Positions 11,543 through 64,000 of a stretch of DNA of 64,000 nt are shown here, piece by piece. The notes under the pieces were generated by a model. That model was not told the origin of the DNA. It saw only the letters and a list, made by a program, of their open reading frames with translations, and made no database searches. This DNA is from Gammaproteobacteria bacterium (lineage in GTDB: Bacteria > Pseudomonadota > Gammaproteobacteria > Steroidobacterales > GCA-2729495). The stretch covers positions 62,309 to 126,308 of the forward strand of contig JAUHYQ010000007.1 in NCBI GenBank assembly GCA_030426355.1, read 5' to 3'. A program made the translations under genes and the position numbers. Within the stretch, counting starts at the first letter, position 1. Each line of letters starts with the position of its first letter.

Positions 11543-11559
11543 GTGCCGTCACGAATCAT

Positions 11560-16862: not shown

Positions 16863-17038
16863 CCCGCGTGAGAGTGCCGTGATTCACTGGCGGCCGCCGA
16901 AGGCGCAACTCGCTCGGAAACGCTCAGGCATAAAGGATTGCGGGTTTGAATCGACTCTGGAGAGCGGCCGCTCGGCGGTCCACCGAAGGGGTGCGGTTGG
17001 CGCATTGCCAACCCGATCTCTCAGGTACACGGACAGAG
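16863..17038 (+). promoter_or_regulatory. tandem glycine riboswitch (two aptamers)
   Basis: Aptamer 1 (16863-16944): CCCGC..GAGAG..CGCCGAAGGCGCAA..CUCAGGCAUAAAGGA..GCGGG. Aptamer 2 (16955-17038): CUCUGGAGAG..CACCGAAGGGG..CUCAGGUACACGGACAGAG. It lies directly 5' of gcvT. Confidence 0.85.
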
Positions 17039-50700: not shown

Positions 50701-50788
50701 GGTGTTTGTGGTGCCCGCCGTTTATCTGGCCATGGCGCGGGATCACAGCCATGATCGTCTTACCGAAGCTCAGCCTTTACCCAACTGA
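47705..50788 (+). CDS. RND efflux permease (AcrB/HAE1 family)
   Basis: 1027 aa with a GTG start. N-terminus FIRRPVLATVVSLLIFLAGL and a 12-TM layout. No outer-membrane factor gene follows. Confidence 0.93.
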   Translation: MLNFTDIFIRRPVLATVVSLLIFLAGLRSIQLLQVSQYPSSESAVVRITTIYTGAEAELVKGFITTPLEREIASADGIDYLESSSLQGASAITAHLKLNYPPYDALTQITAKVNKVRAELPAGADAPVLEVAIGETTSAMYLSFNSATRAQNQITDYLIREVQPRLEAVAGVQQAAILGGRNFAMRIWLDAERMHGLNVTPGEVAAALRANNYQAAIGKTKGDAVSINLVAATDLHSAREFQQLIVGQRNDSLIRLEDIATVALGAENYDSSVAFNGEFATFIAIDVLPTANPLEVIREIRELFPDIVAQLPNDIVGTISYDTTRYIEDAIDGVVKTLVEAALIVMLVIYLFLGTVRSVIIPIVAIPLSMVGAAAIMLALGYSINLLTLLAMVLAIGLVVDDAIIVVENIQRHIEEGKSRLDAALLGARELAIPVIAMTITLFAVYAPIGLAGGLTGSLFREFAFTLAGAVIVSGVVALTLSPMMCSKMLPRRSEEARLAKWLNQRFDNLRRRYAAVLSRSLNAVPVTLVFSVVVLVSIYFMFVSTPAELAPTEDQGIVLVMSTAEAGTSPEQLTRYTGALVDAYRSIEAADQSFLFNGSIGSGPASTTNTALSGLVLKPWSERDATQMELIGEVQQTADTIAGLQSAAFGLPPMPGAGDGLPVQFVLSSTRQPLEIFELANELLGAAYASGLFAFAALDVKFDRPQTRLLIDRDMAANIGVDMEQVGTELGAMLSGNYVSRFSLQGRSYKVIPQSNRADRLNPYQVSGFPLRTESDRLVSMDSILDRQKTVEPQELKRFQQLNSVTLSAVPLPDVALGDALDYLRTTAAGMASADFKFDFAGPSRQYVQEGDSLTVTFFFAIIVIYLILAAQFESFRDPLIMLVSVPMSIAGALVFLTLGAATINIYTQVGLITLIGLISKHGILIVEFANQLQKEGMTKREAIEAAAGIRLRPILMTTAATVLGVFPLLIASGAGAVSRYNIGLVVATGMTVGTLFTVFVVPAVYLAMARDHSHDRLTEAQPLPN

Positions 50789-52263
50789 GCAATAGCAAAA
50801 TCACGTGCGGCCACGGTGACGGTTTTTTCTTCGGTGAACAAAGCACGACTCCAGTCACCACCGTCACGCCCCACACCGGAATGTTTGTAGCCACCAAAGG
50901 GCGCGTGCAAGTCACGGGTCAGGGGCGTGTTAACCCAGACCATTCCGGCGCGCAGTGCATCGGTGGCCCGCATTACCCGGGCGATGTTTTGCGACCACAC
51001 ATAGGCCACCAGCCCGAACTCGCTGTCATTGGCTATCGCGTAGGCTTCGTCTTCGGTGTCGAATGTCAGGATGGTTGCAAAGGGGCCGAAGATTTCCTCC
51101 TGACAAACAGGCAGGGCATTGCTCGCGGCAGTTACAACCGTGGGCTCAACGAAAAAACCTTTATCGAATAGTTCGCTGCGTTTGCCGCCGGCAAGAATTT
51201 CTACACCCTCAGTGTCGGCTGCCTGACGCGCATACTCCAGTACGCGCTCCATTTGCGCAGCGGAAATCAGCGCGCCGATTTCGGTTTTTGGATCGTAAGG
51301 GTCGCCGAGTCTGAGCCGTTTTACACGTGCCACAAAGGCGGCAACAAATTTTTCGGCAATCTCACGTTGCAGCAATATGCGCGAACCGGCCAGGCACTGC
51401 TGACCGTTATTCGAAAAGATAGCGACCAGTGCGGCATCAAGGGCGCGTTCGAAGTCGGCATCCGCAAAAATAATGTTGGCCGATTTACCGCCGAGTTCCG
51501 TCACCACCTTTTTTATGCCGCGGCCGGCTTCGGCTCCGATCAGTCGTCCGGTCGACGTGCCGCCCGTGAAGGCCACCACGTCAACGTCGGGGTGCGCTAC
51601 CAGTGCAGCGCCGGTAACCGGGCCGCGACCGTTGACCATGTTCACGACACCGGGTGGCACGCCCGCCTCAGACAGCAATTCCATAAAGGGCACAAAGCTG
51701 AGCGGTGTAAGCTCGCTGGGTTTCAGTACGCACGAGTTGCCGAAGGCAATTGCACCCGCCACTTTCATCGACGCCAGTGCCAGCGGGGCATTCCACGGCG
51801 CAATCAATCCGGCCACACCCGCCGGATCTCTGCGCACGTAGGTCAGGTAGTCAGGGTTTTGCTCGAACACCGGATTGCTCGCCTGCGCAATGTATTCGGC
51901 GAAGAACTCAAAGTTGGCTGCCGCGCGCGGAATGTGTCGCCCGTAAGCCTGAGCCAGAGGCGCTCCGGTATGAGCGACCTCAAGTTCTGCAAGCCGGTCC
52001 CGATTCGCAAGAATAAGCTCGCTTACCTTAAGCAGCACGCTCTTGCGCGTAGCCACTGATGCGCGTGACCAGACACCGGTTTCAAACGCGGTTTTGGCGC
52101 TGGCAACCGCGCGATGCACTTCAGCGGCATTTGCTTCAGCGACTTCAGAAATCTGCTGCTCATTGGCCGCAAAGATGACCGGCAGCGTGTCGTGCCCGGC
52201 CGGAGTAACCCAGGCGGCATCTATATAACTGGTAACGGTTTTCGGAATCGACTCCGGCAGCAT
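50770..52263 (-). CDS. NAD(P)-dependent aldehyde dehydrogenase (hydroxymuconic-semialdehyde-dehydrogenase-like)
   Basis: 497 aa. ELGGKS and the catalytic Cys context GQQCLAGSR. Confidence 0.88.
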   Translation of the reverse strand: MLPESIPKTVTSYIDAAWVTPAGHDTLPVIFAANEQQISEVAEANAAEVHRAVASAKTAFETGVWSRASVATRKSVLLKVSELILANRDRLAELEVAHTGAPLAQAYGRHIPRAAANFEFFAEYIAQASNPVFEQNPDYLTYVRRDPAGVAGLIAPWNAPLALASMKVAGAIAFGNSCVLKPSELTPLSFVPFMELLSEAGVPPGVVNMVNGRGPVTGAALVAHPDVDVVAFTGGTSTGRLIGAEAGRGIKKVVTELGGKSANIIFADADFERALDAALVAIFSNNGQQCLAGSRILLQREIAEKFVAAFVARVKRLRLGDPYDPKTEIGALISAAQMERVLEYARQAADTEGVEILAGGKRSELFDKGFFVEPTVVTAASNALPVCQEEIFGPFATILTFDTEDEAYAIANDSEFGLVAYVWSQNIARVMRATDALRAGMVWVNTPLTRDLHAPFGGYKHSGVGRDGGDWSRALFTEEKTVTVAARDFAIAQLGKG

Positions 52264-52280
52264 AAGTGTTCTCGCAGGTT

Positions 52281-53012
52281 TTAGTCGGGCACGTGCCAGT
52301 CGCTTTCAGCCACCGGCTCGACTCCCAGCAGCTCCAGTCCGGCATTGGCCAGGGCAACGTTGGACGAAACCACGTGCCTGCCTTCTGCCCGGAGCCTCTT
52401 GATGAGCGGCAAGCCGGGCATGCCGGTGCCGGTTATAACAAAAGCGTCGGCGGGCGTATCGAGCAGTTTCGCGGCAGCGCTCAGGGCATCACCCGTTTGT
52501 TGTTCATAAATACCGTACGTATCGCTTGAACCGATGTCCACTTGCGCACAGGCTCGCACTTCGTAGCCGCGCTGAGTCCAGTAGTTAACAGCGGGCTTGT
52601 TCAGCCAGTCGGGATATGGCGACAGCAAGACGATACTTGCGGCCGCGTTCCGTTCCAGCCAGTGAGCGATGGCATCCGCAGCCAGAATCACCGGCGCGCC
52701 GAGAATTTCTGCCGCTGAATCGGCATAGCGACGGCCGACATCGCCGGTTAGCAGATACGAACTGCCGGTACAGGCGAACATGAAGCCGTCCAGTCGCAGC
52801 TTTGCATAGCGGGCCACGAACTCGGGTAAGTGCTGAATGTACTCCAGCAGGCGGGTGTGCGGATCATCACTTTGGCTGGTGAGCCTCACGGTATAGTACT
52901 CGACGTCGATCGGCATCAGCCGACGAAACTCGGCCTCAACGGTCGGGTTACCCTGCGGCGTTCCCAGACCGAGTCGACCGGCGGCGCCGTAGTCGGGTTG
53001 TGTACTTTTCAT
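52281..53012 (-). CDS. Asp/Glu/hydantoin-racemase-superfamily enzyme (maleate isomerase / arylmalonate decarboxylase-like)
   Basis: 243 aa with two Cys-containing half-sites (FACTGSS, and the ITGTGMP region). It has a 4-nt overlap with the upstream monooxygenase. Confidence 0.7.
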   Translation of the reverse strand: MKSTQPDYGAAGRLGLGTPQGNPTVEAEFRRLMPIDVEYYTVRLTSQSDDPHTRLLEYIQHLPEFVARYAKLRLDGFMFACTGSSYLLTGDVGRRYADSAAEILGAPVILAADAIAHWLERNAAASIVLLSPYPDWLNKPAVNYWTQRGYEVRACAQVDIGSSDTYGIYEQQTGDALSAAAKLLDTPADAFVITGTGMPGLPLIKRLRAEGRHVVSSNVALANAGLELLGVEPVAESDWHVPD

Positions 53013-54208
53013 GCGGCAATGGTAGCCGCTTCGCGCAGGCCCGTAATCATGGACGAACGCAGCAAGTACTCCCTTGCTTGCACGGGATCTGCCGCAATGC
53101 CCTGCAGGCGCTGCAGTTCGGCGCGCCGGGCGGCCGGGTCGCGTTGCTGCATGCGGGTGCGGTTCTGATGCGCCTGTTGCAGGATTTGTTGCTTTGCCAC
53201 CGGCTGGCGCTGCCGGGTATACAGATCCAGCCGCTCAATGGGCGCTTTGCCGGCCAGCACCGGCGGCAGTTTGTCGGTGAGATTGAACGCATCGTGCACG
53301 CCGCCGTTCATGCCCATCCCGCCGGACGGCGAGTTGAGGTGAGCCGCATCGCCGACCAGCAGAATTCGGCCGATGCGGTAGTCATCAACGATGCGTTGAT
53401 GGATGCGATATGGGCGCGCTTCTCGAATTGTATAGGGCGTGTCGCGCGGCACGATGCGCTGCAGTTTGCGCTCAATATTTTCGGCTTGCAGTGCTTCGTC
53501 ATCGCTTTCGCCTTCATCCGGATACAGGCTGCAGCGCCAGATGTCAGGCAAGCGCAGCAAGCTGAAGGTGCCGTGTGCGTACCAGACATAGTTGACGTTC
53601 GAAAGGCCCGGCAGATGGGCGGCAAAGTCGAAGTCGGTGGTGACCAGCAGGGTAGTCTCGGGGTAGGTAAGGCCTTCGAAGTTCAGCGCCAGCTTGTCCC
53701 GGACAAAGCTGCGTGCCCCATCGGCGGCAATCATAAAAGGGGTGCGGACAGTTTGTTCGGCACCGCCCCGGGTTTGCAGACGCGCCACCACATGATCCGC
53801 TGTTTGTGAGAAGTCGATCAGTTGCGTGCCCATGCGCAAGTCCAGCAGCGGTTCTTTGGCTGCCTGCTCTGCCGCCAGCGCACACAGCACACGCTGTTCC
53901 ACTTGCAGACGGAAGGGATACTGCGTATCGCTGCGAATCGCGTCCAGATCAAATTCGGCTTTCTCATGTGTTTCGTGCAGCCGAATCTGCCAGGTGCGGG
54001 TGCGCAGGCCTTGCCGCAGCAGGCCTTCCGTCAGGCCCAGTTCATCGAGCATTTCCAGCGTGGGCGGGTGGAAGGTGGATGCCCGCAAGTCATCCTGCAG
54101 TTGAGCGTCTTTTTCGACCAGGATTACCGGTATACCCGCGCGCACCAGCCGCAATGCCGCTACACAGCCAACGGGACCGGCGCCGATTATCAAAATAGGG
54201 TCAGTCAT
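53009..54208 (-). CDS. FAD-dependent aromatic-ring monooxygenase
   Basis: 399 aa. ILIIGAGPVGCVAALRL and GDAAHLNSPSGGMGMNGGVHDA. Confidence 0.85.
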   Translation of the reverse strand: MTDPILIIGAGPVGCVAALRLVRAGIPVILVEKDAQLQDDLRASTFHPPTLEMLDELGLTEGLLRQGLRTRTWQIRLHETHEKAEFDLDAIRSDTQYPFRLQVEQRVLCALAAEQAAKEPLLDLRMGTQLIDFSQTADHVVARLQTRGGAEQTVRTPFMIAADGARSFVRDKLALNFEGLTYPETTLLVTTDFDFAAHLPGLSNVNYVWYAHGTFSLLRLPDIWRCSLYPDEGESDDEALQAENIERKLQRIVPRDTPYTIREARPYRIHQRIVDDYRIGRILLVGDAAHLNSPSGGMGMNGGVHDAFNLTDKLPPVLAGKAPIERLDLYTRQRQPVAKQQILQQAHQNRTRMQQRDPAARRAELQRLQGIAADPVQAREYLLRSSMITGLREAATIAA

Positions 54209-54223
54209 TGGTCACTTGAGCGG

Positions 54224-54658
54224 CTAGCCGCTTTTCGCCTCGCGGGCTATTTGTTGCATTTGCAGATACGTAAAAGATGCCGACCAGGCGATCAACACCA
54301 GACCCACAAGCGACTCCGTTCCCGCGACGAATCGAATGTGGCCGATCGGTATCAGATCGCCGTAACCCAGCGACGTGTAATTTACAAAAGAAAAATATAC
54401 ATGATCCAGCAAGGTGTAGCTGTACGCCCCTGCCACCTCGCCAACGCCGCCTATAGAAAATGCCAGCATGTACGCCAACGCAAATATCCAGACCTCCACG
54501 ACATGGGTCACGATGACGACCAACACGCCAACAGGCAGCAGCAGTCTGGACGGCCATCCGCGTTTAAAGTGTTTTTCAGACAAATGAGTTAACACTTCAT
54601 AGTGCAGTCCGACCACCAGCAGGATCGAAACGGTGGTACAAATCAAGACGGTGAGCAT
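54224..54658 (-). CDS. minimal two-TM potassium channel
   Basis: 144 aa. The selectivity filter TSLGYGD lies between the last two TM helices. No cytoplasmic gating domain. Confidence 0.8.
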   Translation of the reverse strand: MLTVLICTTVSILLVVGLHYEVLTHLSEKHFKRGWPSRLLLPVGVLVVIVTHVVEVWIFALAYMLAFSIGGVGEVAGAYSYTLLDHVYFSFVNYTSLGYGDLIPIGHIRFVAGTESLVGLVLIAWSASFTYLQMQQIAREAKSG

Positions 54659-54777
54659 GGGGTCGAAGTTCCGATGGTGTATTGAAAGTTGCTATCACAT
54701 CATATCGAAAGGTAATCTTGTGTATGATAAGAATATTGATCGCAATATCTGTATCTATACCGCATTGTGAGGACATT

Positions 54778-55101
54778 ATGAATACGTTTGGAACCCGAAT
54801 CGGTTCAGGTGCCGCAGCCATTTTGTTGAGCGTGGCGATGTTGTTATCAGCGTGCGAGGTTGATAGCGACCGGCCGTTGACGGGGCCGCAGGCGATTGAG
54901 CGTGGCGAACAGGTTTTTGAGTTTAATTGTGGTGCCTGCCACGGTGTTGATGGTCAGGGCCCTTCCCTTGAGCAGATCAAGGCTCTCCCTAGCGCCGAAA
55001 GGCATTCCAAAATGGCCAACCACCCGGTCGCCGGACAAATTCCGCAGCGACTGCGTGCACACGAACTTTCCGACCTGCGGGAGTTTTTTGAATCAAAATA
55101 G
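54778..55101 (+). CDS. c-type cytochrome lipoprotein
   Basis: The ATG at 54778 follows GTGAGGA. Lipobox LLSAC, heme site CGACHG and a distal Met. Confidence 0.75.
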   Translation: MNTFGTRIGSGAAAILLSVAMLLSACEVDSDRPLTGPQAIERGEQVFEFNCGACHGVDGQGPSLEQIKALPSAERHSKMANHPVAGQIPQRLRAHELSDLREFFESK

Positions 55102-55145
55102 CGCGGTTCGGGCCCATCGCTATGTGCGGCGGTCGGTTTACCGGC

Positions 55146-56087
55146 CTAATCCATCGGGTGTCTGGCGAAAAACTCCCAAAGCAAGCCGGTTGCATCAACC
55201 TCACTGTTAGTAAACCCCATACCTATTCTTTGCAGCGTTCCCGCAAGCGGTGTGCCAGGCCACGTATGCCCGCCATCGTCTGAGCGGTAGAAGTCGACGG
55301 TCGCGCCGCCGGCACATCCGCGATAGGACATGCGGGTGACGGTGCTGGAAACGGCTGTTTCTGACGGCGCGTCACGGCACTCATTTTGGTTTACCCAGCC
55401 GCGGATAGCGTCTTCGACACTCTCGCGCCAATGTGCAGGCGAATCCGCAGCGGGTTCATACGGGTTTATGCCATCTTGCTTGCCATGAAAAGCTATCACC
55501 GGAACCGGGCGAGAAGGGCTGCAATCGTCGGGATAGCGGATGCCCGCTACTGGGCCGACGGCCGCGATCAGATCGGAGAGATCGCAGGCCACGCGGCTGC
55601 TCATGCGTGCGCCGCCTGAAAACCCTGTCGCATAGATTCTGCTCGGGTCAATCGAATACTGCTTGCGAATTTCGTCGATCATTTGCCGAATAAACCGAAC
55701 ATCGTCAACGCCGTCTTCTGCACGATCAACGTTCCAGGAAATTCTGCCGTCACTCTCTCGTGTGTATAGCGCTTCCGGGCGAGCGATAAAAAATCCGGCG
55801 CTTGCTGCCAGCGTTTCGAAGGTTGACAACTGCCCCTGCCAGTCCGGTGTTGAACTGCTGGCATGGAACTCCACCACGATCGGCAAGGCTTTGCCTGCTT
55901 CGTATTGGTCGGGCACGTACAAGCGCCAGCTGCGCTGAACACCGTCGACCGAAGTGGTGTAGCGATTCTGCGTCTCAACGGGCTGAGTGTTTTCTTTAGC
56001 AAAGACGGGCACAAAAACCAACAGCGCCAGCGTTGTCGCCGCCACTATCGGTTTGGTGGCGGCATGCTGCCTATAACGCAAAAACAT
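55146..56087 (-). CDS. PHB-depolymerase-family esterase (secreted)
   Basis: Signal peptide, nucleophile elbow GFSGGARM and a HGxxD-type segment (AFHGKQDG). The start is moved to the ATG at 56087 to limit overlap with the upstream gene. Confidence 0.7.
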   Translation of the reverse strand: MFLRYRQHAATKPIVAATTLALLVFVPVFAKENTQPVETQNRYTTSVDGVQRSWRLYVPDQYEAGKALPIVVEFHASSSTPDWQGQLSTFETLAASAGFFIARPEALYTRESDGRISWNVDRAEDGVDDVRFIRQMIDEIRKQYSIDPSRIYATGFSGGARMSSRVACDLSDLIAAVGPVAGIRYPDDCSPSRPVPVIAFHGKQDGINPYEPAADSPAHWRESVEDAIRGWVNQNECRDAPSETAVSSTVTRMSYRGCAGGATVDFYRSDDGGHTWPGTPLAGTLQRIGMGFTNSEVDATGLLWEFFARHPMD

Positions 56088-56763
56088 GGCTAATAATCCT
56101 GGCACAAGCCTGTGGATTGAACTGCGCAATAAAATGGCCACCGGTTACCTCAACCACGTTCATCGCGGAGTATATCTCCCCGACACGTCGCATCGCACCG
56201 GCGCCGACCAGAAAATCACGGGTTGGGCGGATGTAGGTGCTGGGGATGTTGACCCCTCGGCTCGGCAATCGCATGGCAGCGATATGCCCTAGACGTGCCG
56301 ACAGCGCTGCATCACTGACGGTAGCCAGCGCGCTCTTGGCCATTCTGACCAGGTCTGTTCGATCGCTGTCGCCGAATAGCCACGAGGCCAGCAGCCGCTC
56401 TGAAACGGGTGGGTCACGAACCAGACCAACCGGAAAGTGCGATGCGAGCCAGGCCGTTACTGTCGGGCGTGACAGAAAACTGGCCGAGAAGATGACGTGC
56501 CTGATATTCAGCTGCGGCAGTTGACACAGCTCGTAGGCGATTGCTCCCGAGTACGATTCAGCAAACAAAACGACGTTCTCGCCCGCGAGTTTCCCTGCGA
56601 TGTTGGCGGCCTGAACTCCAGGGCTGCCTTCGACAGGGTCGCTAAGGGCAATGACCTCGGTGGCGATGGGCAGCGTGGCAAGAACATCCAGCAACGGCTG
56701 AAACAACCGCCCGGTGCCATCGAGGCCAGGCAGCAGTAACAGCTTAGTGTCGGGCGCCGGCAC
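56071..56763 (-). CDS. alpha/beta-fold hydrolase
   Basis: 230 aa. LLLLPGLDGTG, and AESYSGA as the nucleophile region. Confidence 0.6.
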   Translation of the reverse strand: MPAPDTKLLLLPGLDGTGRLFQPLLDVLATLPIATEVIALSDPVEGSPGVQAANIAGKLAGENVVLFAESYSGAIAYELCQLPQLNIRHVIFSASFLSRPTVTAWLASHFPVGLVRDPPVSERLLASWLFGDSDRTDLVRMAKSALATVSDAALSARLGHIAAMRLPSRGVNIPSTYIRPTRDFLVGAGAMRRVGEIYSAMNVVEVTGGHFIAQFNPQACARIISHVFAL

Positions 56764-56769
56764 GCCTAC

Positions 56770-57444
56770 TTATTTCGCCCCGTACAGGTAGTTCATATCG
56801 GGCTTCTCGGTAGCAAAGTAGTGAACCCATATATAGGCGTGACTGAAGGCGGCAACGACCAACGCCGCGAGCGAGTTCAAGCCAATAGAGATAGCCCAGA
56901 ACAGAAAGAACGCATAGAGGTACATTCCGTTACTGGTAAAGCGAAATATGCCCTCTGAGACTAATGGCATCTCGCGGTAGGCGGGGTCGAAGTGGTCAGC
57001 GCCAGCTGCCCTTATTAATCCAAAGTACCGTTTCACACTGTACATTGCGTACAGACCGATGACTAAGAGCACGGTCGTCAAAATAGCTCGGGGAACAGTC
57101 GGCAGGTTCAGGCTGCCCCGATCTGCCCAACCCAAGGTGAATAATGTGACAAAGCGGCCGCCAAACAGAATAAAAAAAAGCGTTACGTAACTGCGCATGC
57201 TTGATCGTTCGCCTTCTAAACCAGCGCGCAGTTGCAGCCTCCACACGATCCACACAAATATCTGGTGAATTATCGGTACCGCAATGGCCAGCCAGAAAAG
57301 AAATGGGTTGGGTGTGTCAATATTGCTCCACGTCAATGCAACCCAGGCCAACAGAACGGCAAGCCCGAAAAAATGGATTCCCTGTCCATGCCATAGACCC
57401 GGTGGCAACGGCTTTTTTGGTGCTTCTGAACTCTCCACAGTCAT
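56770..57444 (-). CDS. membrane methyltransferase of the PEMT/ICMT family
   Basis: 224 aa with 5-6 TM segments. C-terminal GIFRFTSNGMY ... EKPDMNYLYG resembles phospholipid or isoprenylcysteine methyltransferases. Confidence 0.55.
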   Translation of the reverse strand: MTVESSEAPKKPLPPGLWHGQGIHFFGLAVLLAWVALTWSNIDTPNPFLFWLAIAVPIIHQIFVWIVWRLQLRAGLEGERSSMRSYVTLFFILFGGRFVTLFTLGWADRGSLNLPTVPRAILTTVLLVIGLYAMYSVKRYFGLIRAAGADHFDPAYREMPLVSEGIFRFTSNGMYLYAFFLFWAISIGLNSLAALVVAAFSHAYIWVHYFATEKPDMNYLYGAK

Positions 57445-57546
57445 TGCACCTCAAAATAGGCTGTGAACGCCGGTTTCATGGGCTAGGTTAATATGTTTCA
57501 GCAGCGGAGCGGGGCGTATTCGCAGCGCTGCGATTGGTGCAAAAAA

Positions 57547-57593
57547 TGGTGGGCCCGGTAGGACTCGAACCTGGGACCAAGGGATTATGAGTC
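57547..57593 (-). pseudogene. 3' fragment of a tRNA-Met/Ile2 (CAU) gene; candidate island att site
   Basis: The minus strand reads CTCATAATCCCTTGGTCCCAGGTTCGAGTCCTACCGGGCCCACCA (anticodon loop to CCA). No matching 5' acceptor strand or D-arm lies upstream, and the T-stem pairs at only 3 of 5 positions. Confidence 0.6.
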
Positions 57594-57788
57594 GTAGTCA
57601 CCGCGATTTTTCGAACTATAACAGTCAATCACCAGCCATCGTTGACTACTGTAATCTGCGCTCTGAAGTAAGGCAAGCAGTGGCTTTCAGGCGATCGTTG
57701 AATAACAACTGTAAATAGTTAGTTTCTGCGAATTACTGCCTATAGCTGACGATATCAGCCGGCTCTGCGGTAAGAAGACGGTAAGAGT

Positions 57789-58436
57789 TCAGTAATAAAG
57801 TGGAATAAATACTGGGCTAGTGCGCACTGGCACATCACTTTGCTCCCAAGGCCCTTCAGGCACATCTGCCGGCCGAAATCGATCCTCAGGAATAAGACGG
57901 AAGCGCGATTTTAGCCTCTCGGTATCCTCTACATATCTTGAACGAATTGTGACCTCTACATTATTGAACCGATTGCCGAACTTGTTCGATCCAATATCGA
58001 AATCAAATTGAAAATTCCCAAGGTACAAAAACTCGTCTTCTCTCACGCGAATTTCTATCGGAATTAGCTCGCTCTTAGGTATCGCCCCAGATGGATCGAG
58101 AGCAACCGACCACCAATCTAGCTGGTATGTGTCGACTGGCAGTTGTAGTAGAAATATGGCGTATTCTTGATCCGGGTATTTCGGATCATGAGATATATTG
58201 GTTTTCGCAAACATATTCCCCGGCGGCGCAAGTCTGCCGCAATAAGATCCAGCGATATCATCGCGTTCGTCGAGGCAGACAAACGTAAAAGTCTTCCCGT
58301 TTGCAGGTTGACTTATGGTTCCATAAACATAGCCAACGCCGATAGTAGGCTCAAAAGTGTAATCTTCATCCTGCAGCCCGAATTTGCTGAATTGGTTCGT
58401 GCAAGCTGACAGTCCTAGTATCACGACAAATACCAT
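57789..58436 (-). CDS. lipoprotein of unknown function
   Basis: The ATG at 58436 follows GGGGAGG. Lipobox ILGLSAC. The track ORF's TTG start at 58571 would read through attC Z. Confidence 0.55.
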   Translation of the reverse strand: MVFVVILGLSACTNQFSKFGLQDEDYTFEPTIGVGYVYGTISQPANGKTFTFVCLDERDDIAGSYCGRLAPPGNMFAKTNISHDPKYPDQEYAIFLLQLPVDTYQLDWWSVALDPSGAIPKSELIPIEIRVREDEFLYLGNFQFDFDIGSNKFGNRFNNVEVTIRSRYVEDTERLKSRFRLIPEDRFRPADVPEGPWEQSDVPVRTSPVFIPLYY

Positions 58437-58455
58437 AACTAGCCTCCCCAAAGCC

Positions 58456-58536
58456 CGAGAACGCCCTGGGTAGGAGCGGCTTGTGAAGCCAGGCGTCTGG
58501 CACGCGTAGCGTGTGCATTGCCCGAACTGGTTAACT
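58456..58536 (-). repeat. attC-like site Z (81 nt, divergent)
   Basis: CGAGAAC-GCC-CTGGGTA ... TTGCCCGAA-CTG-GTTAACT. The right end is complementary to the left end of site A. Confidence 0.65.
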
Positions 58537-58572
58537 GCTTTGGCTGCTTGCACAACTATTTGCACGGTCAAA

Positions 58573-58794
58573 CTAGCCCCCTTTCTTCATCATCAACCAC
58601 AGCGTTAGAAATACTTTTGAAGGCAGTAGCAATATCAATCCCGTGCCAGCAACTGCGGATATGATCTTAATGCCCTTCATTCCCATTTCATTGTGGAGGT
58701 CCGCAAATACGACCAAATAGATGGCGACTAAAACGAGCCCTAGCCCTAGAAACATGGCACATGTAAGTGCGCGCTTTAGTGTTGCATCCTTCAT
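58573..58794 (-). CDS. cassette ORF: 73-aa two-TM protein
   Basis: MKDATLKRALTCAMFLGLGLVLVAIYLVVF... The ATG is 6 nt from the GTTAACT core. Confidence 0.45.
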   Translation of the reverse strand: MKDATLKRALTCAMFLGLGLVLVAIYLVVFADLHNEMGMKGIKIISAVAGTGLILLLPSKVFLTLWLMMKKGG

Positions 58795-58800
58795 TTACGC

Positions 58801-58881
58801 AGTTAACGCCTTGGGCAAAGGGCGCGGGCGAAGCCGCGTCCAGCACCGCAGGTGCGAGCTGTCTTGACTGACTGGTTAAGC
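58801..58881 (-). repeat. attC-like site A (81 nt, divergent L boxes)
   Basis: AGTTAAC-GCC-TTGGGCA ... CTG-GTTAAGC. The higA-like stop codon (58876-58878) lies inside the right-end core. Confidence 0.65.
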
Positions 58882-59136
58882 GGCCGATTCAACTGCTATA
58901 TCCCAACCTGGAAATACAAGCACCGCAGGATGACAACCCAGTGCACGAGCCAAATTCTTGGATCGTTCCACTCCTAGACTAATTCGATCGTTTTCAATGG
59001 CCGATATAGTTGATTGCGGCATCCCGGCGAGTTTAGCCAGCTCATTCTGACTCAGCTCCTGCAGCTCGCGCAGAATCCTGACCGACTCGCCCGGCGTAAC
59101 CTCAATCGACTTTTTAGCTTTTCGGAACTCACTCAT
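58876..59136 (-). CDS. XRE-family HTH antitoxin (HigA-like)
   Basis: 86 aa. HTH LSQNELAKLAGMPQSTISAIENDR. It has a 1-nt overlap (TAATG) with the toxin gene. Confidence 0.8.
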   Translation of the reverse strand: MSEFRKAKKSIEVTPGESVRILRELQELSQNELAKLAGMPQSTISAIENDRISLGVERSKNLARALGCHPAVLVFPGWDIAVESAA

Positions 59137-59420
59137 TAGGATTTCCTCCGATAATCATGTGCTGTTAGATCAAATACCTTAACAACAACGTGTTGTTCCT
59201 CCACCAGATATATAACGCGATACTGGTTTCCCAGGCGGGAAGAACGGTGACCTTTCCATTCTCCTATAAGCGGTTCATCTCTAAAGCCCTTGATACGTCG
59301 CAGACCCTGGGGTCCTGAAATTGCGACGATATCTTTCCACTTCTCATATCGCTTCAAAATATCGGCAGGTGTCTTTGGAATGCGCCTAACGACGCGGCGA
59401 TGCTCAAATACCTGCCACAT
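59136..59420 (-). CDS. RelE/ParE-superfamily toxin (HigB-like; toxin gene first)
   Basis: 94 aa. The WKGHRSSRLGNQYRVIYLVEEQHVVVKVFDLTAHDY pattern is typical of RelE-fold toxins. Confidence 0.8.
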   Translation of the reverse strand: MWQVFEHRRVVRRIPKTPADILKRYEKWKDIVAISGPQGLRRIKGFRDEPLIGEWKGHRSSRLGNQYRVIYLVEEQHVVVKVFDLTAHDYRRKS

Positions 59421-59429
59421 ACTGAAAAG

Positions 59430-59458
59430 AGTATATATACTGTATTTGGTATGTCAAG
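59430..59458 (-). promoter_or_regulatory. sigma70-type promoter with palindromic operator for the TA cassette
   Basis: On the minus strand: TTGACA (59458-53), 17 nt, then TATACT (59435-30). The perfect 12-bp palindrome AGTATATATACT (59430-59441) covers the -10. Confidence 0.6.
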
Positions 59459-59480
59459 CGCCTAAACTGCAAATAAGGCC

Positions 59481-59561
59481 GCTTAACGCCTTGGGCAGGG
59501 GCGGCTGGCGAAGCCAGACGTCCCGCTCGCGAAGCGAGCCCATTGCCCCAACTGGTTACGT
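59481..59561 (-). repeat. attC-like site B (81 nt)
   Basis: GCTTAAC-GCC-TTGGGCA ... TGCCCCAA-CTG-GTTACGT, with two internal GAA-loop hairpins. Confidence 0.8.
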
Positions 59562-59579
59562 GTGCGCACTCGACTTTAC

Positions 59580-59816
59580 CTAGTTCTCGGGTAGGGCATC
59601 AAACTCTGCCTTTTTGGACTCAAACCATTGCTGCATTTTTTCGGGTTCTTGCATGAGTTCTCGCATCTTATTCATCGCTTCCAGATGTGGAGCGTCTTGT
59701 TTTTGATGCATCTCCATTCCATGCTTTTGGCTCAATTCCGCCATTTCCTCGAAGGTGTCGGCATGAAACTCTTCGTCGCACGCACCGCCTAGCTGTCTGC
59801 AATTCATAGTTTTCAT
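59580..59816 (-). CDS. cassette ORF: DUF1059-like small protein
   Basis: The ATG at 59816 follows AAGGAG. MKTMNCRQLGGACDEEFHADTFEEMAELSQKHGMEMH. The track ORF to 59918 runs into attC C. Confidence 0.65.
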   Translation of the reverse strand: MKTMNCRQLGGACDEEFHADTFEEMAELSQKHGMEMHQKQDAPHLEAMNKMRELMQEPEKMQQWFESKKAEFDALPEN

Positions 59817-59846
59817 ATCGTGCTCCTTGATTGAGCTACTTAGTAC

Positions 59847-59927
59847 ACGTAACGCCTGTGGCTGGGGCGCAGCGCAAAGCGCTGCGTCCAGCGAGCGGAG
59901 CGAGCGAACAGACCACACTGGTTATAT
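59847..59927 (-). repeat. attC-like site C (81 nt)
   Basis: ACGTAAC-GCC-TGTGGCTG ... CAGACCACA-CTG-GTTATAT. Confidence 0.8.
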
Positions 59928-60650
59928 TTCATCACTAACGCATGCCCTTACAAAACTCACGCCCAACTCTGTAATACATATGGACTCATATCCGGCGTCG
60001 CTTGTCGGCGATATCCCTCCCACTGATATCCCGGGTGTCCTCAGAACAGCAGAACAAACACAACGCACTCGCATCAAATTGTCTACCGATAATTCATACT
60101 CTCTCGGAGAAGCAGGAAGTACTTTGACAATCTCCTCTCGAGGAAAAGAAATATGGGTTGGCGAATGATCGCTCGGGACCTCATGTTCTTTGAGGTAGTT
60201 TCTGTAACTGTTATAGATCAGCTCAAGTAGCCGAACATCTTCAATTTCCAACTGCTTGATGATATCGATGAACGCGGATCGAACAGGTGTTCCACCAGCC
60301 GAATTCTGAGCGGATGAAATTAGCCGAGCCCAGAGGTCTTGGAGCGAATCACTTTCTTCTATATAAGCATTCTCCAAGGCTGGAATTGCCAGCTTCAGCG
60401 GCACAGGTCGCTCGTCCCCTTCGATCCCGCGCGACCGGTTTAATTCATTAACCCGATCTGCTAAGCGTGCCGCGCGCTCCAAACGAACGTACTTCAGCTT
60501 GTCATCTACAATGCCGGAAGCGGTTTCAAGAGGCTTTCCGATAACTTTAGAAAGGAAACCGCCGAGCTTTTCTGCAACATCTAAAGCTTTACCAGTCGCT
60601 TTTGCTACCTCAGCCGTAGAATTTGTAGGAGGGTCTTCTTGGCTGCTCAA
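59922..60650 (-). CDS. cassette ORF: Abi-alpha (DUF4393)-like abortive-infection protein
   Basis: The pattern GKPLETASGIVDDKLKYVRLERAARL ... PVPLKLAIPALENAYIEESDSLQDLWARLISSA ... FIDIIKQLEIEDVRLLELIY matches my recollection of Abi_alpha. The start is placed at the TTG at 60650 because the ATG at 60695 lies inside attC D. The stop TAA lies inside the attC C core. Confidence 0.6.
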   Translation of the reverse strand: MSSQEDPPTNSTAEVAKATGKALDVAEKLGGFLSKVIGKPLETASGIVDDKLKYVRLERAARLADRVNELNRSRGIEGDERPVPLKLAIPALENAYIEESDSLQDLWARLISSAQNSAGGTPVRSAFIDIIKQLEIEDVRLLELIYNSYRNYLKEHEVPSDHSPTHISFPREEIVKVLPASPREYELSVDNLMRVRCVCSAVLRTPGISVGGISPTSDAGYESICITELGVSFVRACVSDEI

Positions 60651-60668
60651 TGTTGCACCCCGAGCGAA

Positions 60669-60749
60669 ATATAACGCCTTGGGCACGGGCGGCACGCGAA
60701 GCGTGGCGTCCGGCGAGCGCAGCGAGCATCTTGCCCCAACTGGTTAGGT
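60669..60749 (-). repeat. attC-like site D (81 nt)
   Basis: ATATAAC-GCC-TTGGGCA ... TTGCCCCAA-CTG-GTTAGGT. Confidence 0.8.
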
Positions 60750-61109
60750 TTCAAATTCACTATGTACTCGTGGATGCCTAAGAAAAATAACGATACCCGA
60801 ATTGAATAAGAATATGAAAAGCTCAATTAGCCCAGCAGAGATACCAGTATCCGCCATCACTATAGCGACCAAGGCAGACGCAGCACGTATAGCAGCTAGC
60901 GCCGCAAATACGATCATGGCCCAGGAAGCGGGTTTCCAACGAATGGCAAGGCCCCACGCAACTGCAATAGCCATAGTGCCGAGTGACCCTGAAACTACGT
61001 ATCCTGTTGGGTTTGGTTCAACATACGAGCCATAAGCGAGCCAAAATAAATTGACTGCTGCCAGCAAGTTGTAAGCGATGATTACATAGAGCCCGTATCG
61101 AACGTTCAA
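60744..61109 (-). CDS. cassette ORF: 121-aa four-TM protein
   Basis: TTG start 7 nt after GTTAGGT, and the stop lies inside the attC D core. Hydrophobic throughout. Confidence 0.45.
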   Translation of the reverse strand: MNVRYGLYVIIAYNLLAAVNLFWLAYGSYVEPNPTGYVVSGSLGTMAIAVAWGLAIRWKPASWAMIVFAALAAIRAASALVAIVMADTGISAGLIELFIFLFNSGIVIFLRHPRVHSEFET

Positions 61110-61116
61110 TGCAGAA

Positions 61117-61197
61117 ACCTAACGCCTTGGGCAGGGGCGGCTGGCGAAGCCAGGCGTCCGGCGAGCGCAGCGAGCGAATTGGCCCAACTGGTTAGGT
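61117..61197 (-). repeat. attC-like site E (81 nt)
   Basis: ACCTAAC-GCC-TTGGGCA ... TTGGCCCAA-CTG-GTTAGGT, with an unpaired G in the right-hand L box. Confidence 0.8.
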
Positions 61198-61488
61198 GGC
61201 GTTTTTAAGAATGCGTTCATTTATGTAGTTACACCATTGGCTTGATTCTCGAGGAGGCACGGAAGGATCGTTTCGTAGCCCCATCTTAAACTCAACAACG
61301 GAGCGCCACTCTAGGGATCCGATATCTGGCCCATGCCCTTGCCCATCACCCGTTGAGATTTGATCTTCGATTACTTGATACCAATCGTTCGTGCAGGCTT
61401 GGCTCAAGGTTCGATCGTCGGTGGTGCGAGCGCAGCCAAAATTGCCCAAGCAAATAAAACCAAGAAGAATCCCAATTACTCGCCGCAT
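61192..61488 (-). CDS. cassette ORF: 98-aa putative lipoprotein
   Basis: MRRVIGILLGFICLGNFGC. The ATG lies 10 nt after GTTAGGTGG, and the stop lies inside the attC E core. Confidence 0.5.
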   Translation of the reverse strand: MRRVIGILLGFICLGNFGCARTTDDRTLSQACTNDWYQVIEDQISTGDGQGHGPDIGSLEWRSVVEFKMGLRNDPSVPPRESSQWCNYINERILKNAT

Positions 61489-61498
61489 GGATTAAGCC

Positions 61499-61579
61499 AC
61501 CTAACGCCTTGGGCACGGGCGGCTGGCGAAGCCAGACGTCCCGCTCGCGAAGCGAGCCCTTTGCCCCAACTGGTTATGT
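61499..61579 (-). repeat. attC-like site F (81 nt)
   Basis: ACCTAAC-GCC-TTGGGCA ... TTGCCCCAA-CTG-GTTATGT. It is nearly identical to site B internally. Confidence 0.8.
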
Positions 61580-61975
61580 GCCATTTTGCGAGATTCCCCA
61601 AATAATGTCGACTAAGCCTATTGGTACAAAAATTGAAACCGCGGTAAGCACAAAAAAGTAGCAGCGATCCCAAAACAAACCGCTTCCAAAATTGAACACC
61701 ACATCCCTTGGCATGTGGCCTATATAGCGCCGGAAAAACCGAGCTAACAAAATAGCAAATAGAAATTGAGCCAGAGGCGAACAGTAAAATATAACTTCGC
61801 CCGGATGAAGCGCGCCGGCATCCAAACGGACCAGCCCACTTATAGCGGAGAAAGTGGCAAGCCCTCCAAACAGTATTAAGCCGCGACTATCGCCAATGAG
61901 AAAATTGTGGGCTGGCGGAAACAGCATGTATGAACCGGGGAATACAAGAGGGATAAATATGGGATCGAATTTCAA
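61574..61975 (-). CDS. cassette ORF: 133-aa membrane protein
   Basis: The TTG at 61975 is preceded by GGAG at -9, and the stop lies inside the attC F core. 4 TM segments. Confidence 0.45.
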   Translation of the reverse strand: MKFDPIFIPLVFPGSYMLFPPAHNFLIGDSRGLILFGGLATFSAISGLVRLDAGALHPGEVIFYCSPLAQFLFAILLARFFRRYIGHMPRDVVFNFGSGLFWDRCYFFVLTAVSIFVPIGLVDIIWGISQNGT

Positions 61976-61990
61976 CGAATTCGCTCCGGC

Positions 61991-62116
61991 ACATAACGCC
62001 TTGGGCAGAGGCGCGGCGAAAGCGGCGCGGTCGCTGCAGACTGTCCAGCGCAGAGGACGCGCCGCTTTTGGCGCGTCCGGCGACCGAAGGGAGCGAATTG
62101 CCCCAACTGGTTAGGT
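61991..62116 (-). repeat. attC-like site G (126 nt, long variable region)
   Basis: ACATAAC-GCC-TTGGGCA ... TTGCCCCAA-CTG-GTTAGGT. It has the same R/L boxes as the others and a 45-nt longer GC-rich centre. Confidence 0.75.
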
Positions 62117-62137
62117 GTCATAACCTTTTCACCTAAG

Positions 62138-62572
62138 CTAGTGTGATCGGATCTCTTGCGATACTTCGCCATTTTCAATCCACGCATACACTACTGCGCC
62201 TTTACCAGCCACAAGCGGGGCTGATTTGTCACTGTCGCAATTCAGATAGTCTACCAACAACGAATACGAGACTTCATCCCCATCAAATACGGGCACATAG
62301 ATTTCCGGGCCTTTCTGTGCGATTTCACCGTCTGCCCTGGAAAAGACCATAGGTTTATCGACCGTTAGTTGATATTCGCCAAAATTCACCTGCGCAGCTG
62401 ACACGACACAGTTCGACCGATTGAATATCCTCACATATACACGATCGGGATCAACTACTGTATCAATTAAGATTGCCAATCCCACCGCGAACGCGGTTGC
62501 TACAAATGCGACCGCAATTGAGATGACAAGTACGCGTCCCAAAAAGGCCAGAACGCTTTGTATATTGGCCAT
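62138..62572 (-). CDS. first cassette ORF: 144-aa N-terminally anchored protein
   Basis: The ATG at 62572 gives MANIQSVLAFLGRVLVISIAVAFVATAFAVGLAILI. The track ORF to 62641 crosses the cassette boundary. Confidence 0.45.
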   Translation of the reverse strand: MANIQSVLAFLGRVLVISIAVAFVATAFAVGLAILIDTVVDPDRVYVRIFNRSNCVVSAAQVNFGEYQLTVDKPMVFSRADGEIAQKGPEIYVPVFDGDEVSYSLLVDYLNCDSDKSAPLVAGKGAVVYAWIENGEVSQEIRSH

Positions 62573-62575
62573 TAC

Positions 62576-62582
62576 ACCTAAC
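62576..62582 (-). repeat. orphan core site (GTTAGGT on the minus strand) marking the array boundary
   Basis: ACCTAAC is complementary to the right end of attC G, but no attC body follows it. Confidence 0.6.
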
Positions 62583-62800
62583 AGCTTATTAATGTGAAAC
62601 GGATATTGATCTTGGAATAGCACAAAGCAATAGGCCCCCAAAAGCCGTGATCATTACCAACTAAACTACTAACAGCGTTGAACACGGTCAATGTGCCTGA
62701 GAACAATAGACCGCAACTGAAGCCAGAGTATTTGTTCCTTATTTGGTGGTTTTCTGAAAATGCCAGCTGGGCGGGGTTTGATAAATAGTTATCAATCGCC

Positions 62801-63406
62801 TCAGGCTTCCTTTCGTTTCATCCAGCCCAAACCGAGCAGAGCCGAGCCAAACAGCCATGCGGCGGCGGGGATGGGGACGACAGTCGAATAGGTCCAGACA
62901 CCCGGAGACGCTATTACAGAGGCGCCATCCTGGCTGGAGAGTTTGCACCCGCCCGTGGGCCACTCCTCTATGCATTCCGAAATGCCCACGATATCGAAAA
63001 TATTGTCGGTGCTAATTTGCATACTCTGATCGCCCACCGCCGCATAGCCGCCGGTGTCGGCCATTGCTGTAAAAGTCCAGGTGATAATGTCGCCGGAAGC
63101 ATTGATAGCGAAGCTGGCATTGACCAAAGTCGAATTCAAATGCGTGAGGTTGGTGCGTCCATCAAACAATGTGTACTCCAGAATCGAGGCGCTAATGTCT
63201 GTCACTGGCATTGGGGTGAGAGCATCGGCCACCAGAAAACTGCCGCTAATGCTCATGGATGTATCGTAGGCGCCAGCCGGCACCGATGGATCGCTTACGG
63301 AAGTGAAATTATTGCCGGTGTATTGATAGAGGGTCGCCGCGCTCACCGGAGCAATGATGCCGAACGCTGCGATCATCGCCACCGCGGCCATAAATAGAGT
63401 TCTCAT
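62801..63406 (-). CDS. secreted protein with a VPLPA/PEP-CTERM-type C-terminal sorting signal
   Basis: The ATG at 63406 follows GGGGGA. Signal peptide MRTLFMAAVAMIAAFGIIAPVSA. The C-terminus is VPIPAAAWLFGSALLGLGWMKRKEA. Confidence 0.7.
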   Translation of the reverse strand: MRTLFMAAVAMIAAFGIIAPVSAATLYQYTGNNFTSVSDPSVPAGAYDTSMSISGSFLVADALTPMPVTDISASILEYTLFDGRTNLTHLNSTLVNASFAINASGDIITWTFTAMADTGGYAAVGDQSMQISTDNIFDIVGISECIEEWPTGGCKLSSQDGASVIASPGVWTYSTVVPIPAAAWLFGSALLGLGWMKRKEA

Positions 63407-63797
63407 AGAATCCCCCAAACATTAATTGTTGTTATCGGCGTAAGCCGGATTCCTCAATCCGATCCTGATCGCTCACTGGTACTGAACGCTCAAGCAAACG
63501 CGACAACTATTGTGATGGGATAAAAATACGCTCCGAGAACCGAAATAACAAACCAAATATCGGAATTCCGAGAATTTCAGCGCATGGCTGCGCAAACCGC
63601 CATTGAAACGGTCCCAACGAATGCAGGTGCGTCACTCACGAAGCCAGGAACGATGGCCGATGACCAAAGCCTGAGTGCTGGTTCTCATGAATCGCGGCCT
63701 TGATGTGTGAGGTGCCTCACAGTCACAAGCCCGCCGGAACGGCAAAATTCCTGTGTTTGACATAAAGCCGCCGGTGGGTCCGGTAAGGGAGGCTTCG

Positions 63798-64000
63798 ATG
63801 GAGACCAAGCGCATCAACTGGCTTTCACTATTAGCATTTTTTGTCCCGCTGCTCGCTTTTTCCGAGGTGGCTTCTGGCAGCTCTCCTCTGGCAATTCCAG
63901 ACGGCAAGCGCGCGTCGGCTCCGGTAACAGAGCAGCCCATTGTGGAAGTCGATTTTGCTGAAGCGCACCAGTTCTTGAGCAGCCGTCGCGACTCCGACTG
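63798..64000 (+). CDS. 5' end of a secreted-protein gene running off the window
   Basis: GGGAGG lies 7 nt upstream of the ATG. METKRINWLSLLAFFVPLLAFSEVASG. The frame is open to the window end and the ORF is absent from the track. Confidence 0.5.
   Translation, partial: METKRINWLSLLAFFVPLLAFSEVASGSSPLAIPDGKRASAPVTEQPIVEVDFAEAHQFLSSRRDSD

Follow-up and report, generated by a model that had tools for sequence, protein, structure and literature searches.

The region 57.6-62.7 kb of the 64,000-nt stretch of contig JAUHYQ010000007.1 analyzed here (Gammaproteobacteria bacterium, assembly GCA_030426355.1; the whole stretch is hereafter called the window) is very probably an integron gene-cassette array that lacks a neighbouring integrase gene (intI) and retains an attI site at 62583-62647. 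Arrays of this type are known as clusters of attC sites lacking integron-integrases (CALINs) and are defined as two or more attC sites that share a strand, are spaced by under 4 kb and have no intI within 4 kb (PMC4889954). The window contains eight co-oriented attC sites with no intI within 4 kb and is therefore classified as carrying a CALIN; the retained attI indicates that this CALIN derives from, or belongs to, an integron platform. The original prediction for this DNA, an integron-type cassette array, was borne out with respect to the array and its attC hallmarks, and is refined here with respect to its type: a CALIN with an attI and without an integrase.

Repeats and cassette junctions

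The eight repeats share one orientation and start at positions 58456, 58801, 59481, 59847, 60669, 61117, 61499 and 61991. Seven of them are 81 nt long and the eighth (61991-62116) is 126 nt long; the starts of neighbouring repeats are separated by 345-822 nt, and such repeats are restricted to 58.4-62.1 kb within the 64 kb scanned. Each repeat follows the frame xxxxAAC-GCC-...-CTG-GTTAxxx, with AACGCC invariant at the 5' end and ACTGGTTA invariant at the 3' end.

The 3' GTTxxxx end of every repeat is the exact reverse complement of the 5' start of the next one, over 9, 11, 9, 10, 10, 10 and 10 nt for successive pairs, and the GTTAGGTGT of the last repeat has its 9-nt match in an isolated ACACCTAAC (62574-62582) that has no repeat body. 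Beyond the family-conserved GTTA, five to seven extra bases are matched at each junction (chance probability about 1e-3 per junction), and eight matched junctions in series cannot be chance. The two ends of one and the same repeat agree at only four to seven of seven positions. The junction 7-mers are GTTAGGT (found four times), GTTAAGC, GTTATGT, GTTATAT, GTTACGT, GTTAACT and GTTCTCG; relative to the R-box consensus RYYYAAC / GTTRRRY, five of the ten fit GTTRRRY exactly, four have one mismatch, and the distal GTTCTCG has three. AAC and GTT triplets are present without exception in the eight sites of the window and in the related sites of other genomes (85 of 85). The original prediction had listed the eight repeats with their starts, the shared AAC-GCC ... 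CTG-GTT frame, the complementarity of 9-11 nt from the end of one repeat to the start of the next, and the frequent mismatch between a repeat's own ends; all these features were recovered, and the complementarity is exact at all eight junctions, with no mis-reading of the sequence.

The observed junctions can be explained by the known steps of integron recombination. Each attC site would be extruded as single-stranded DNA from the bottom strand, which we assign below to the plus strand of the window, and folded. By analogy with studied integrons, the integrase would then cut the bottom-strand 5'-AAC between A and C, corresponding to a crossover between G and TT (G/TT) on the top strand; attC x attC recombination would release a cassette in circular form, and attI x attC recombination would insert a cassette at 62582/62583. 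Such a history of excision and insertion makes the two R half-sites of an integrated cassette complementary, but not the two ends of a single attC site. The earlier proposal that the junctions are products of G/TT crossover is supported by the chimeric junctions (8 of 8), by the link of this repeat family to integrases, and by the cassettes common to arrays of other genomes.

Structure and covariation of the attC sites

By definition, an attC site is an imperfect palindrome in which R and L boxes are separated by a central spacer that stays unpaired, and which ends in a terminal structure varying from 20 to 100 nt (PMC4889954); the sites of the window match this layout. When folded as single-stranded DNA, the well-preserved sites C-H form (i) an R-box stem of 7 bp, (ii) a 3x3 unpaired spacer (GCC/CTG), (iii) an L-box stem of 7 bp with one additional bulged base, and (iv) a branched terminal structure of 46 nt, or 91 nt in site H, composed of a first hairpin with a GAA loop and a short second hairpin. 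The minimum-energy DNA fold of site F contains the R-box pairing, the 3x3 unpaired spacer, the L-box stem and the GAA-loop hairpin. The expectation that the plus strand of each repeat folds, with internal GAA-loop hairpins, agreed with DNA folding, which displays these loops in sites B, C, E, F and G. The z-scores of single-site DNA folds are modest (0 to -3.7), and the structure was therefore tested on related sites.

Relatives of the repeats were found by scanning one genome per bacterial and archaeal species with a pattern comprising the two conserved ends of the repeat. The scan yielded 54 loci, mostly from uncultured Gammaproteobacteria (labelled Chromatiales/Chromatiaceae, Haliea/Halioglobus, Porticoccus and Arenicella), and a relaxed pattern gave 246 sites in these loci, clustered and in one orientation per locus except for L015 and L039. 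The covariation set comprised 85 distinct 81-nt sites from other genomes, none of which is identical to a site of the window. The L-box helix is paired in 99.7% of cells of this alignment, and all seven of its base pairs change on both sides; the bulge at column 66 is kept across the L boxes TTGGGCA/TG-C-CCCAA, TGCAACA/TG-A-TTGCA and TGTGGCT/CAG-A-CCACA. Covariation over the whole structure is 0.216, versus 0.078 in shuffled sets (none of 500 reached the observed value) and at most 0.045 when the pairing partners were slid. In site D of the window, 26 of the 29 family base pairs form despite a differing L-box sequence.

The covariance model R1, built from the 85 non-window sites and run on the whole 64 kb with filters off, matches exactly the eight repeats, on the plus strand only, with scores of 96, 95, 95, 95, 81, 54, 34 and 20 bits; the best match outside the repeats in the 64 kb scores 10.8 bits (E 0.9). 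Rfam contains no attC family, and its scan of the window at gathering thresholds gave no relevant family. A full-text literature search for the repeat sequence returned only chance matches in unrelated papers.

The coding and recombinogenic strands were assigned by comparison with related loci. We take the plus strand to be the recombinogenic bottom strand, and the minus strand to be the coding (top) strand of the cassettes, because the strand carrying the pattern is the non-coding strand of the cassettes in the intI-linked loci L051, L047 and L005. Two independent published features of the recombinogenic strand are a bulge on the arm opposite 5'-AAC and better folding (Nivina et al. 2016, PMC5027507). 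Both agree with this predicted assignment: the window sites have their L-box bulge on the 3' plus-strand arm, opposite AAC, and the better-folding strand is the one that corresponds to plus in 80 of 85 family sites (mean -18.9 versus -15.8 kcal/mol) and in eight of eight window sites.

The modest z-scores, and the fact that the repeats are GC-rich imperfect palindromes between convergently packed short genes, could be expected of ordinary intergenic palindromes, such as repetitive extragenic palindromic (REP) elements, bacterial interspersed mosaic elements (BIMEs), miniature inverted-repeat transposable elements or terminators, with a merely coincidental cassette pattern. However, REP elements and terminators do not make complementarity of 9-11 nt between the end of one copy and the start of the next at eight of eight junctions. 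The repeats are strictly in one orientation and one cluster, they belong to an attC family linked to integron integrases and attI, and whole cassettes are common to different genomes in different contexts. Thus, an origin as ordinary palindromes is effectively refuted. Readings of the repeats as clustered regularly interspaced short palindromic repeats (CRISPR), as REP/BIME elements or as terminators were considered and ruled out by the repeat length, the variable ORF-bearing spacing (ORF, open reading frame), the junction logic and the integrase link.

Sites of the attC family fall into discrete length classes of 78, 81, 84, 96, 114 and 126 nt. The 126-nt subtype represented by site H, which has a long extra hairpin, is 86-97% identical in L023, L038, L040, L044, L007 and other loci. 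This subtype was also observed in L022, L041 and L011; it occurs in several metagenome-assembled genomes (MAGs) and is more conserved than the cassettes it follows. Single pattern matches in L003 (Aenigmatarchaeota), L008 (Pseudomonas canadensis), L013 (Pelagibacteraceae), L015 (WOR-1), L029 (Solitalea) and L054 (Lentisphaerae) had no R1 score and were treated as chance matches rather than members of the family. Another six loci of Pelagibacteraceae have single pattern matches, all of the same 84-nt length, which suggests one conserved unrelated sequence.

Integrase linkage, attI and the right flank

A full-length integrase gene adjoins the same attC family in loci L051, L047 and L005. The three integrases score 399-409 bits with the TIGR02249 'integron integrase' model (cut-off 265), far above their XerC and XerD scores, and are 46-47% identical over the full length to IntI1. 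In all three, the intI start is 260-310 nt from the attI junction, with transcription directed away from the array; this position is occupied in the window by a VPLPA-CTERM gene.

The attI site of the window was assigned by its position after the last cassette junction and by homology. The crossover lies between 62582 and 62583, where the top strand reads ...AAGCTG/TTAGGTGT... (the slash marks the crossover); the last junction in the window is ACACCTAAC/AGCTTATTAATGTGAAACGG, that is, ACCTAAC/AGCTTATTAATGTGAAACGG, also read as ACCTAAC/AGCTTATTAATG. The 65 nt at 62583-62647 align with the stretch of L051 that separates the first cassette from intI (local score 38), and 300 shuffles gave a best score of 27 (z 9.4). 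The junction motif and the next 65 nt also align with the junction region of L001, and weaker similarity to the attI flank of L001 extends to approximately 62738. The sequence comparison thus identifies 62583-62647 as the predicted attI, and its subtype, AGCTTATTAA(A)TG.GAAA, is that of L051. IntegronFinder searches for attI by exact match to class 1-3 sequences (PMC4889954), so the attI of the window would go unannotated; the array itself is expected to be flagged by this program.

No counterpart of the integrase gene was detected beside this attI. Tblastn searches with four IntI proteins (IntI1 and the three from the family) gave a best E-value of 0.24 in the 64-kb window and, in the additional 3.36 kb on its right, only values above 2. 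The range searched for intI comprised approximately 58 kb to the left of attC A, the 1.9 kb from the last attC to the window end and the 3.36 kb recovered rightward; it contained no intI, either in the 4.8 kb right of the attI junction or in the 5.2 kb that follow the last attC. Two Logan contigs from the independent short-read assembly of run ERR3420974 are 100% identical to the window, one at 47789-59507 and the other at 62592-64000 with 3,364 nt beyond. The contigs end at the attC and attI repeats and hence leave the array unspanned. The breaks of the two contigs (L087 and L089) fall inside attC C (59507) and 10 nt right of the attI junction (62592), and could be caused by plain repeat collapse or by population heterogeneity at the junction.

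The right flank encodes a protein of 196 aa with a VPLPA-CTERM sorting signal (62801-63391, minus strand) and an ORF of 1174 aa on the plus strand, which starts at 63799, continues past the window end (43-3567 of L089) and takes up the additional rightward sequence; its product has a signal peptide and no Pfam family. These genes might have been inserted into a complete integron, splitting attI from an intI that lies further right, past the equivalent of window position 67,364. The attI is intact and homologous to an intI-linked attI, the sequence right of the junction was inspected over 4.8 kb only, and raising the distance threshold to 10 kb is reported to have joined 27 of 279 CALINs to an integron or In0 (Cury et al., PMC4889954). 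On the other hand, intI starts 260-310 nt from the junction in all three intI-bearing relatives, the equivalent space and the next 4.5 kb of the window hold the VPLPA-CTERM gene and the 1174-aa gene without any integrase remnant, and attI-bearing arrays without intI recur in a related genome (L001 and L028). A distant integrase gene on the same platform is accordingly a highly improbable explanation, and we retain the CALIN classification.

The array was probably assembled by an IntI of the marine gammaproteobacterial type found in L051, L047 and L005, and intI would later have been lost or separated, leaving the array either frozen or served in trans by an integrase encoded elsewhere. In the MAG LOGT_bin.0117, the complete integron L051 (597-1892), with intI and attI subtype 1, is on one contig, and another contig carries two attI-bearing arrays without intI, L001 (5356-5709) and L028 (6040-6470). 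In the latter two loci, a tRNA-Met gene has its 3' end at approximately the expected intI start, at distances of 277 and 354 nt from the junction. Each of the three attI subtypes was found both with and without intI.

The coexistence of L051 with the intI-less L001 and L028 in LOGT_bin.0117, and the attI subtype shared by L001 and L051, raise the possibility that, in this group of marine or sediment Gammaproteobacteria, arrays with attI but no intI are not debris but recurrent functional 'satellite' integrons, served in trans by a single integrase encoded elsewhere and systematically linked to tRNA-Met. The tRNA-Met is intact and beside attI in L001 and L028; in the window, it is shortened and at the distal end. 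We consider this generalization improbable; if true, it would imply a tRNA-linked route for moving whole arrays.

Several observations weigh against the interpretation of the region as a CALIN with an attI: (i) sites A and B are degenerate, forming 22 and 16 of the 29 family base pairs, respectively; (ii) the last ORF (57789-58436) has no attC; (iii) the bulged base is usually C (also A or G), versus the usual G; (iv) there is no evident counterpart of the canonical second extrahelical T, which should lie 6 bp away from the first extrahelical base; (v) the training sites of R1 were fetched by a pattern derived from the window, so that its matches are not a fully independent test for attC; and (vi) a crude consensus scan of the minus strand at 62583-62800 found no sigma-70-like site, and hence no Pc-like promoter. 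In place of the second T, five unpaired nucleotides are located on the bulge-bearing arm at the three-way junction.

Gene cassettes

Placing the cassette boundaries at the top-strand G/TT crossover resolves eight cassettes, the first of which is delimited by the 9-nt complementarity of GTTAGGTGT and ACACCTAAC (Table 1). All cassette ORFs are on the minus strand, and each is followed by its own attC; the interval content claimed originally, one minus-strand ORF or one toxin-antitoxin pair, was thereby confirmed. The ORFs start 9-36 nt after the junction, except in cassette 7, which has two ORFs and a 66-nt leader. Five ORFs terminate with the TAA contained in the R'' box of their attC (xxxTAAC; 61574-61576, 61192-61194, 60744-60746, 59922-59924 and 58876-58878), so that the gene end overlaps the recombination site. 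The GC content of the array is 45-52%, compared with 55-63% in the flanks.

Table 1. Predicted features of the cassette array and its borders, listed from the attI side to the distal end.
Feature	Position	Strand	Description
attI-like site	62583-62647	-	Position after last cassette junction; homology to L051 and L001
Cassette 1 (nearest attI)	61997-62581	-	585 nt; ORF 62138-62572, predicted membrane protein of 144 aa, no family; attC H
attC H	61991-62116	+	126 nt, long terminal structure; local R1 match 20 bits; DNA fold -37.6 kcal/mol, z -3.7
Cassette 2	61505-61996	-	492 nt; ORF 61574-61975, membrane protein of 133 aa, no family; attC G
attC G	61499-61579	+	81 nt; R1 96.0 bits, E 1.3e-28; 28/29 family base pairs form
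Cassette 3	61123-61504	-	382 nt; ORF 61192-61488, 98 aa; attC F
attC F	61117-61197	+	81 nt; R1 95.1 bits
Cassette 4	60675-61122	-	448 nt; ORF 60744-61109, membrane protein of 121 aa; attC E
attC E	60669-60749	+	81 nt; R1 94.9 bits
Cassette 5	59853-60674	-	822 nt; ORF ~59922-60647 (start codon uncertain), Abi_alpha-family protein of 241 aa; attC D
attC D	59847-59927	+	81 nt; R1 80.7 bits; covarying L box TGTGGCT / CAG-A-CCACA
Cassette 6	59487-59852	-	366 nt; ORF 59580-59816, 78 aa; attC C
attC C	59481-59561	+	81 nt; R1 94.6 bits; DNA fold z -2.5
Cassette 7 (toxin-antitoxin)	58807-59486	-	680 nt; toxin 59136-59420, antitoxin 58876-59136; attC B
attC B	58801-58881	+	81 nt, divergent; R1 34.3 bits, E 2e-8; 16/29 pairs in family register
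Cassette 8	58462-58806	-	345 nt; ORF 58573-58794, membrane protein of 73 aa; attC A
attC A	58456-58536	+	81 nt, most distal, partly degenerate; R1 53.7 bits; 22/29 pairs form
Terminal ORF past attC A	57789-58436	-	Lipoprotein-like protein of 215 aa, no family, no downstream attC
tRNA-Met(CAT) 3' fragment	57547-57593	-	3' 47 nt, anticodon loop to acceptor end; left boundary of low-GC array segment

Five small membrane or secreted cassette proteins have no significant family match. The products of cassettes 1 and 2 matched nothing in Pfam, NCBIfam or PADLOC, the cassette 3 protein has an N-terminal signal or lipobox-like sequence, and the cassette 4 protein has only a sub-threshold match to DUF2062. 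A weak match to DUF1059 (E 0.0037), under the Pfam cut-off, was observed for the cassette 6 protein. The cassette 5 protein matches the Pfam family Abi_alpha (PF14337; 79.7 bits, 3.9e-22) and the PADLOC candidate defence family PDC-S47 (1.1e-15), and is a candidate for an anti-phage function. In cassette 7, the toxin matches TIGR02385 RelE_StbE with 34.7 bits (cut-off 27.9) and the antitoxin matches HTH_3 (2e-15).

Just upstream of the toxin gene, the minus strand carries a sigma-70-like promoter sequence (59457 to 59430, TTGACA-16-TATACT, 11 of 12 consensus matches). By analogy with known chromosomal integrons, the toxin-antitoxin cassette, equipped with this promoter-like site, is likely to stabilise the array, and expression of most other cassettes is likely to be poor, given that the scan of the attI region gave no Pc-like promoter. 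The promoter-like site is overlapped by a 22-nt palindrome (59417-59454), which could be an operator.

Comparison across genomes, suggested earlier as a check for cassette presence/absence polymorphism, revealed cassette-level exchange between genomes rather than polymorphism among strains: three cassettes recur in arrays of other genomes. The inner part of cassette 8 is 96% identical to L007 3907-4171, which lies in another genome's array among unrelated neighbouring cassettes. The inner part of cassette 3 is 73% identical in nucleotides and 62% in amino acids to the first cassette of L005, located beside attI and intI, and cassette 7 is 72% identical to cassettes in L001 and L021. Exact-protein look-ups for five ORFs of the window found none on record, probably owing to differing start-codon calls; homologue searches gave identical proteins.

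Distal end of the array and the tRNA-Met fragment

The terminal ORF is either a truncated ninth cassette or the array end. Neither the R1 scan nor a box search detected a ninth attC or a partner box for GTTCTCG left of 58456. A homologue of this ORF, 75% identical, in the JGI contig L088 also follows an attC and has none downstream.

The tRNA-Met fragment is located approximately 195 nt past the terminal ORF and is followed by a 44-nt downstream flank (57503-57546). Together, fragment and flank (57503-57593) are 83.5% identical over 91 nt to L001 5589-5679, where ARAGORN predicts that tRNA-Met is intact (5633-5709). In the window, array-side DNA takes the place of the 5' half of the tRNA from 57594 on, and the T-stem has two substitutions compared with the intact L001 copy. 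The fragment was not called by ARAGORN or Rfam in the window, nor by an E-value Rfam scan of 57300-57900. The association with tRNA-Met may reflect island integration, deletion or coincidence.

Under the first of these options, the array would lie inside or at the margin of a genomic island that integrated at a tRNA-Met gene, with 57547-57593 as the distal attachment-site repeat. This scenario concerns the origin and context of the array and is compatible with its classification as a CALIN. Elements that integrate into the 3' part of tRNA genes classically leave such a remnant, and the fragment extends from the anticodon loop through the 3' end into a native-looking flank, with the 5' half replaced by low-GC array-side DNA; moreover, three other intI-less loci with attI and an array (L001, L028 and L010) lie near intact tRNA-Met genes. 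However, no intact tRNA-Met or island integrase was seen within 4.8 kb right of attI, the tRNA of L001 and L028 is on the attI side and not at the distal end, conservation of the 44-nt flank in both the window and L001 does not fit a simple attL/attR model, and L038 has no tRNA fragment after its distal attC. An island origin is possible but doubtful. A metagenome scan for an empty site or strain polymorphism, with the PEMT-like protein of the left flank (56770-57444) as query, gave relatives of at most 69% identity, with no further synteny, tRNA or attC.

Comparison with known integrons

Comparison of the array with known integron types revealed both common and distinctive features. Like the CALINs of Cury et al. 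(2016, PMC4889954), it has attC sites that are co-oriented and spaced by under 4 kb, lacks intI within 4 kb, is small (eight sites, versus a reported mean of about five) and carries cassettes mostly of unknown function; unlike them, it keeps an attI homologous to that of an intI-bearing integron, and it has no intI pseudogene remnant. Of the features of a complete integron, an attI adjoining the first cassette is present, and an intI within 4 kb is not. The complete integrons L051, L047 and L005, from uncultured marine or sediment Gammaproteobacteria, have the same attC family, R-box junction logic and homologous cassettes, but differ in having intI where the window has the VPLPA-CTERM and 1174-aa genes.

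Sedentary chromosomal integrons, exemplified by the Vibrio cholerae superintegron with its V. cholerae repeats (VCRs), resemble the array in several respects: attC sites are homogeneous within the array and across related genomes and have a branched terminal structure, and the cassettes include a toxin-antitoxin pair with its own promoter (in the window, a promoter-like site), a candidate phage-defence gene and mostly unknown small ORFs. In contrast to the superintegron, the window has only eight cassettes and no adjacent intI. Sedentary chromosomal integrons are characterized by more than 19 attC sites or by occurrence in every genome of the species, and the eight sites of the window fall short of this number. 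Its attC sites differ from VCRs in their length of 81 nt, two short hairpins (the first GAA-looped), a single L-box bulge that is usually C, and the 3x3 GCC/CTG spacer. With class 1 mobile integrons the array has in common the logic of attI x attC and attC x attC recombination, the G/TT crossover and the bottom-strand hairpins, whereas intI1, the Tn402 or 3'-conserved segment (3'-CS) context and resistance genes are absent, and the array has homogeneous attC sites in place of diverse ones.

Chromosomal arrays with homogeneous, taxon-typical attC families have already been described (PMC8352920), as have toxin-antitoxin cassettes (PMC13108822) and defence cassettes (bioRxiv 10.1101/2024.07.02.601686). 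Arrays of this type form a well-known and routinely detected class, and only the attI without intI, the single C-type bulge with the three-way-junction terminus, and the association with tRNA-Met are mildly unusual. The array leaves the current understanding of integrons unchanged. Its main value lies in annotation, namely in the exact cassette boundaries, the strand assignment and the attI site; as a well-resolved CALIN with an attI, it also bears on how CALINs arise. In addition, it documents a very homogeneous 81-nt attC family common to many uncultured Gammaproteobacteria, and a pool of compact genes with candidate adaptive or anti-phage functions, including the Abi_alpha gene, the toxin-antitoxin pair, five family-less ORFs and the family-less terminal ORF.

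Other features of the window

Ordinary chromosomal features elsewhere in the window include tRNA-Gln(CTG) at 9403-9476, 6S RNA at 11530-11712 and a glycine riboswitch at 16857-16950.

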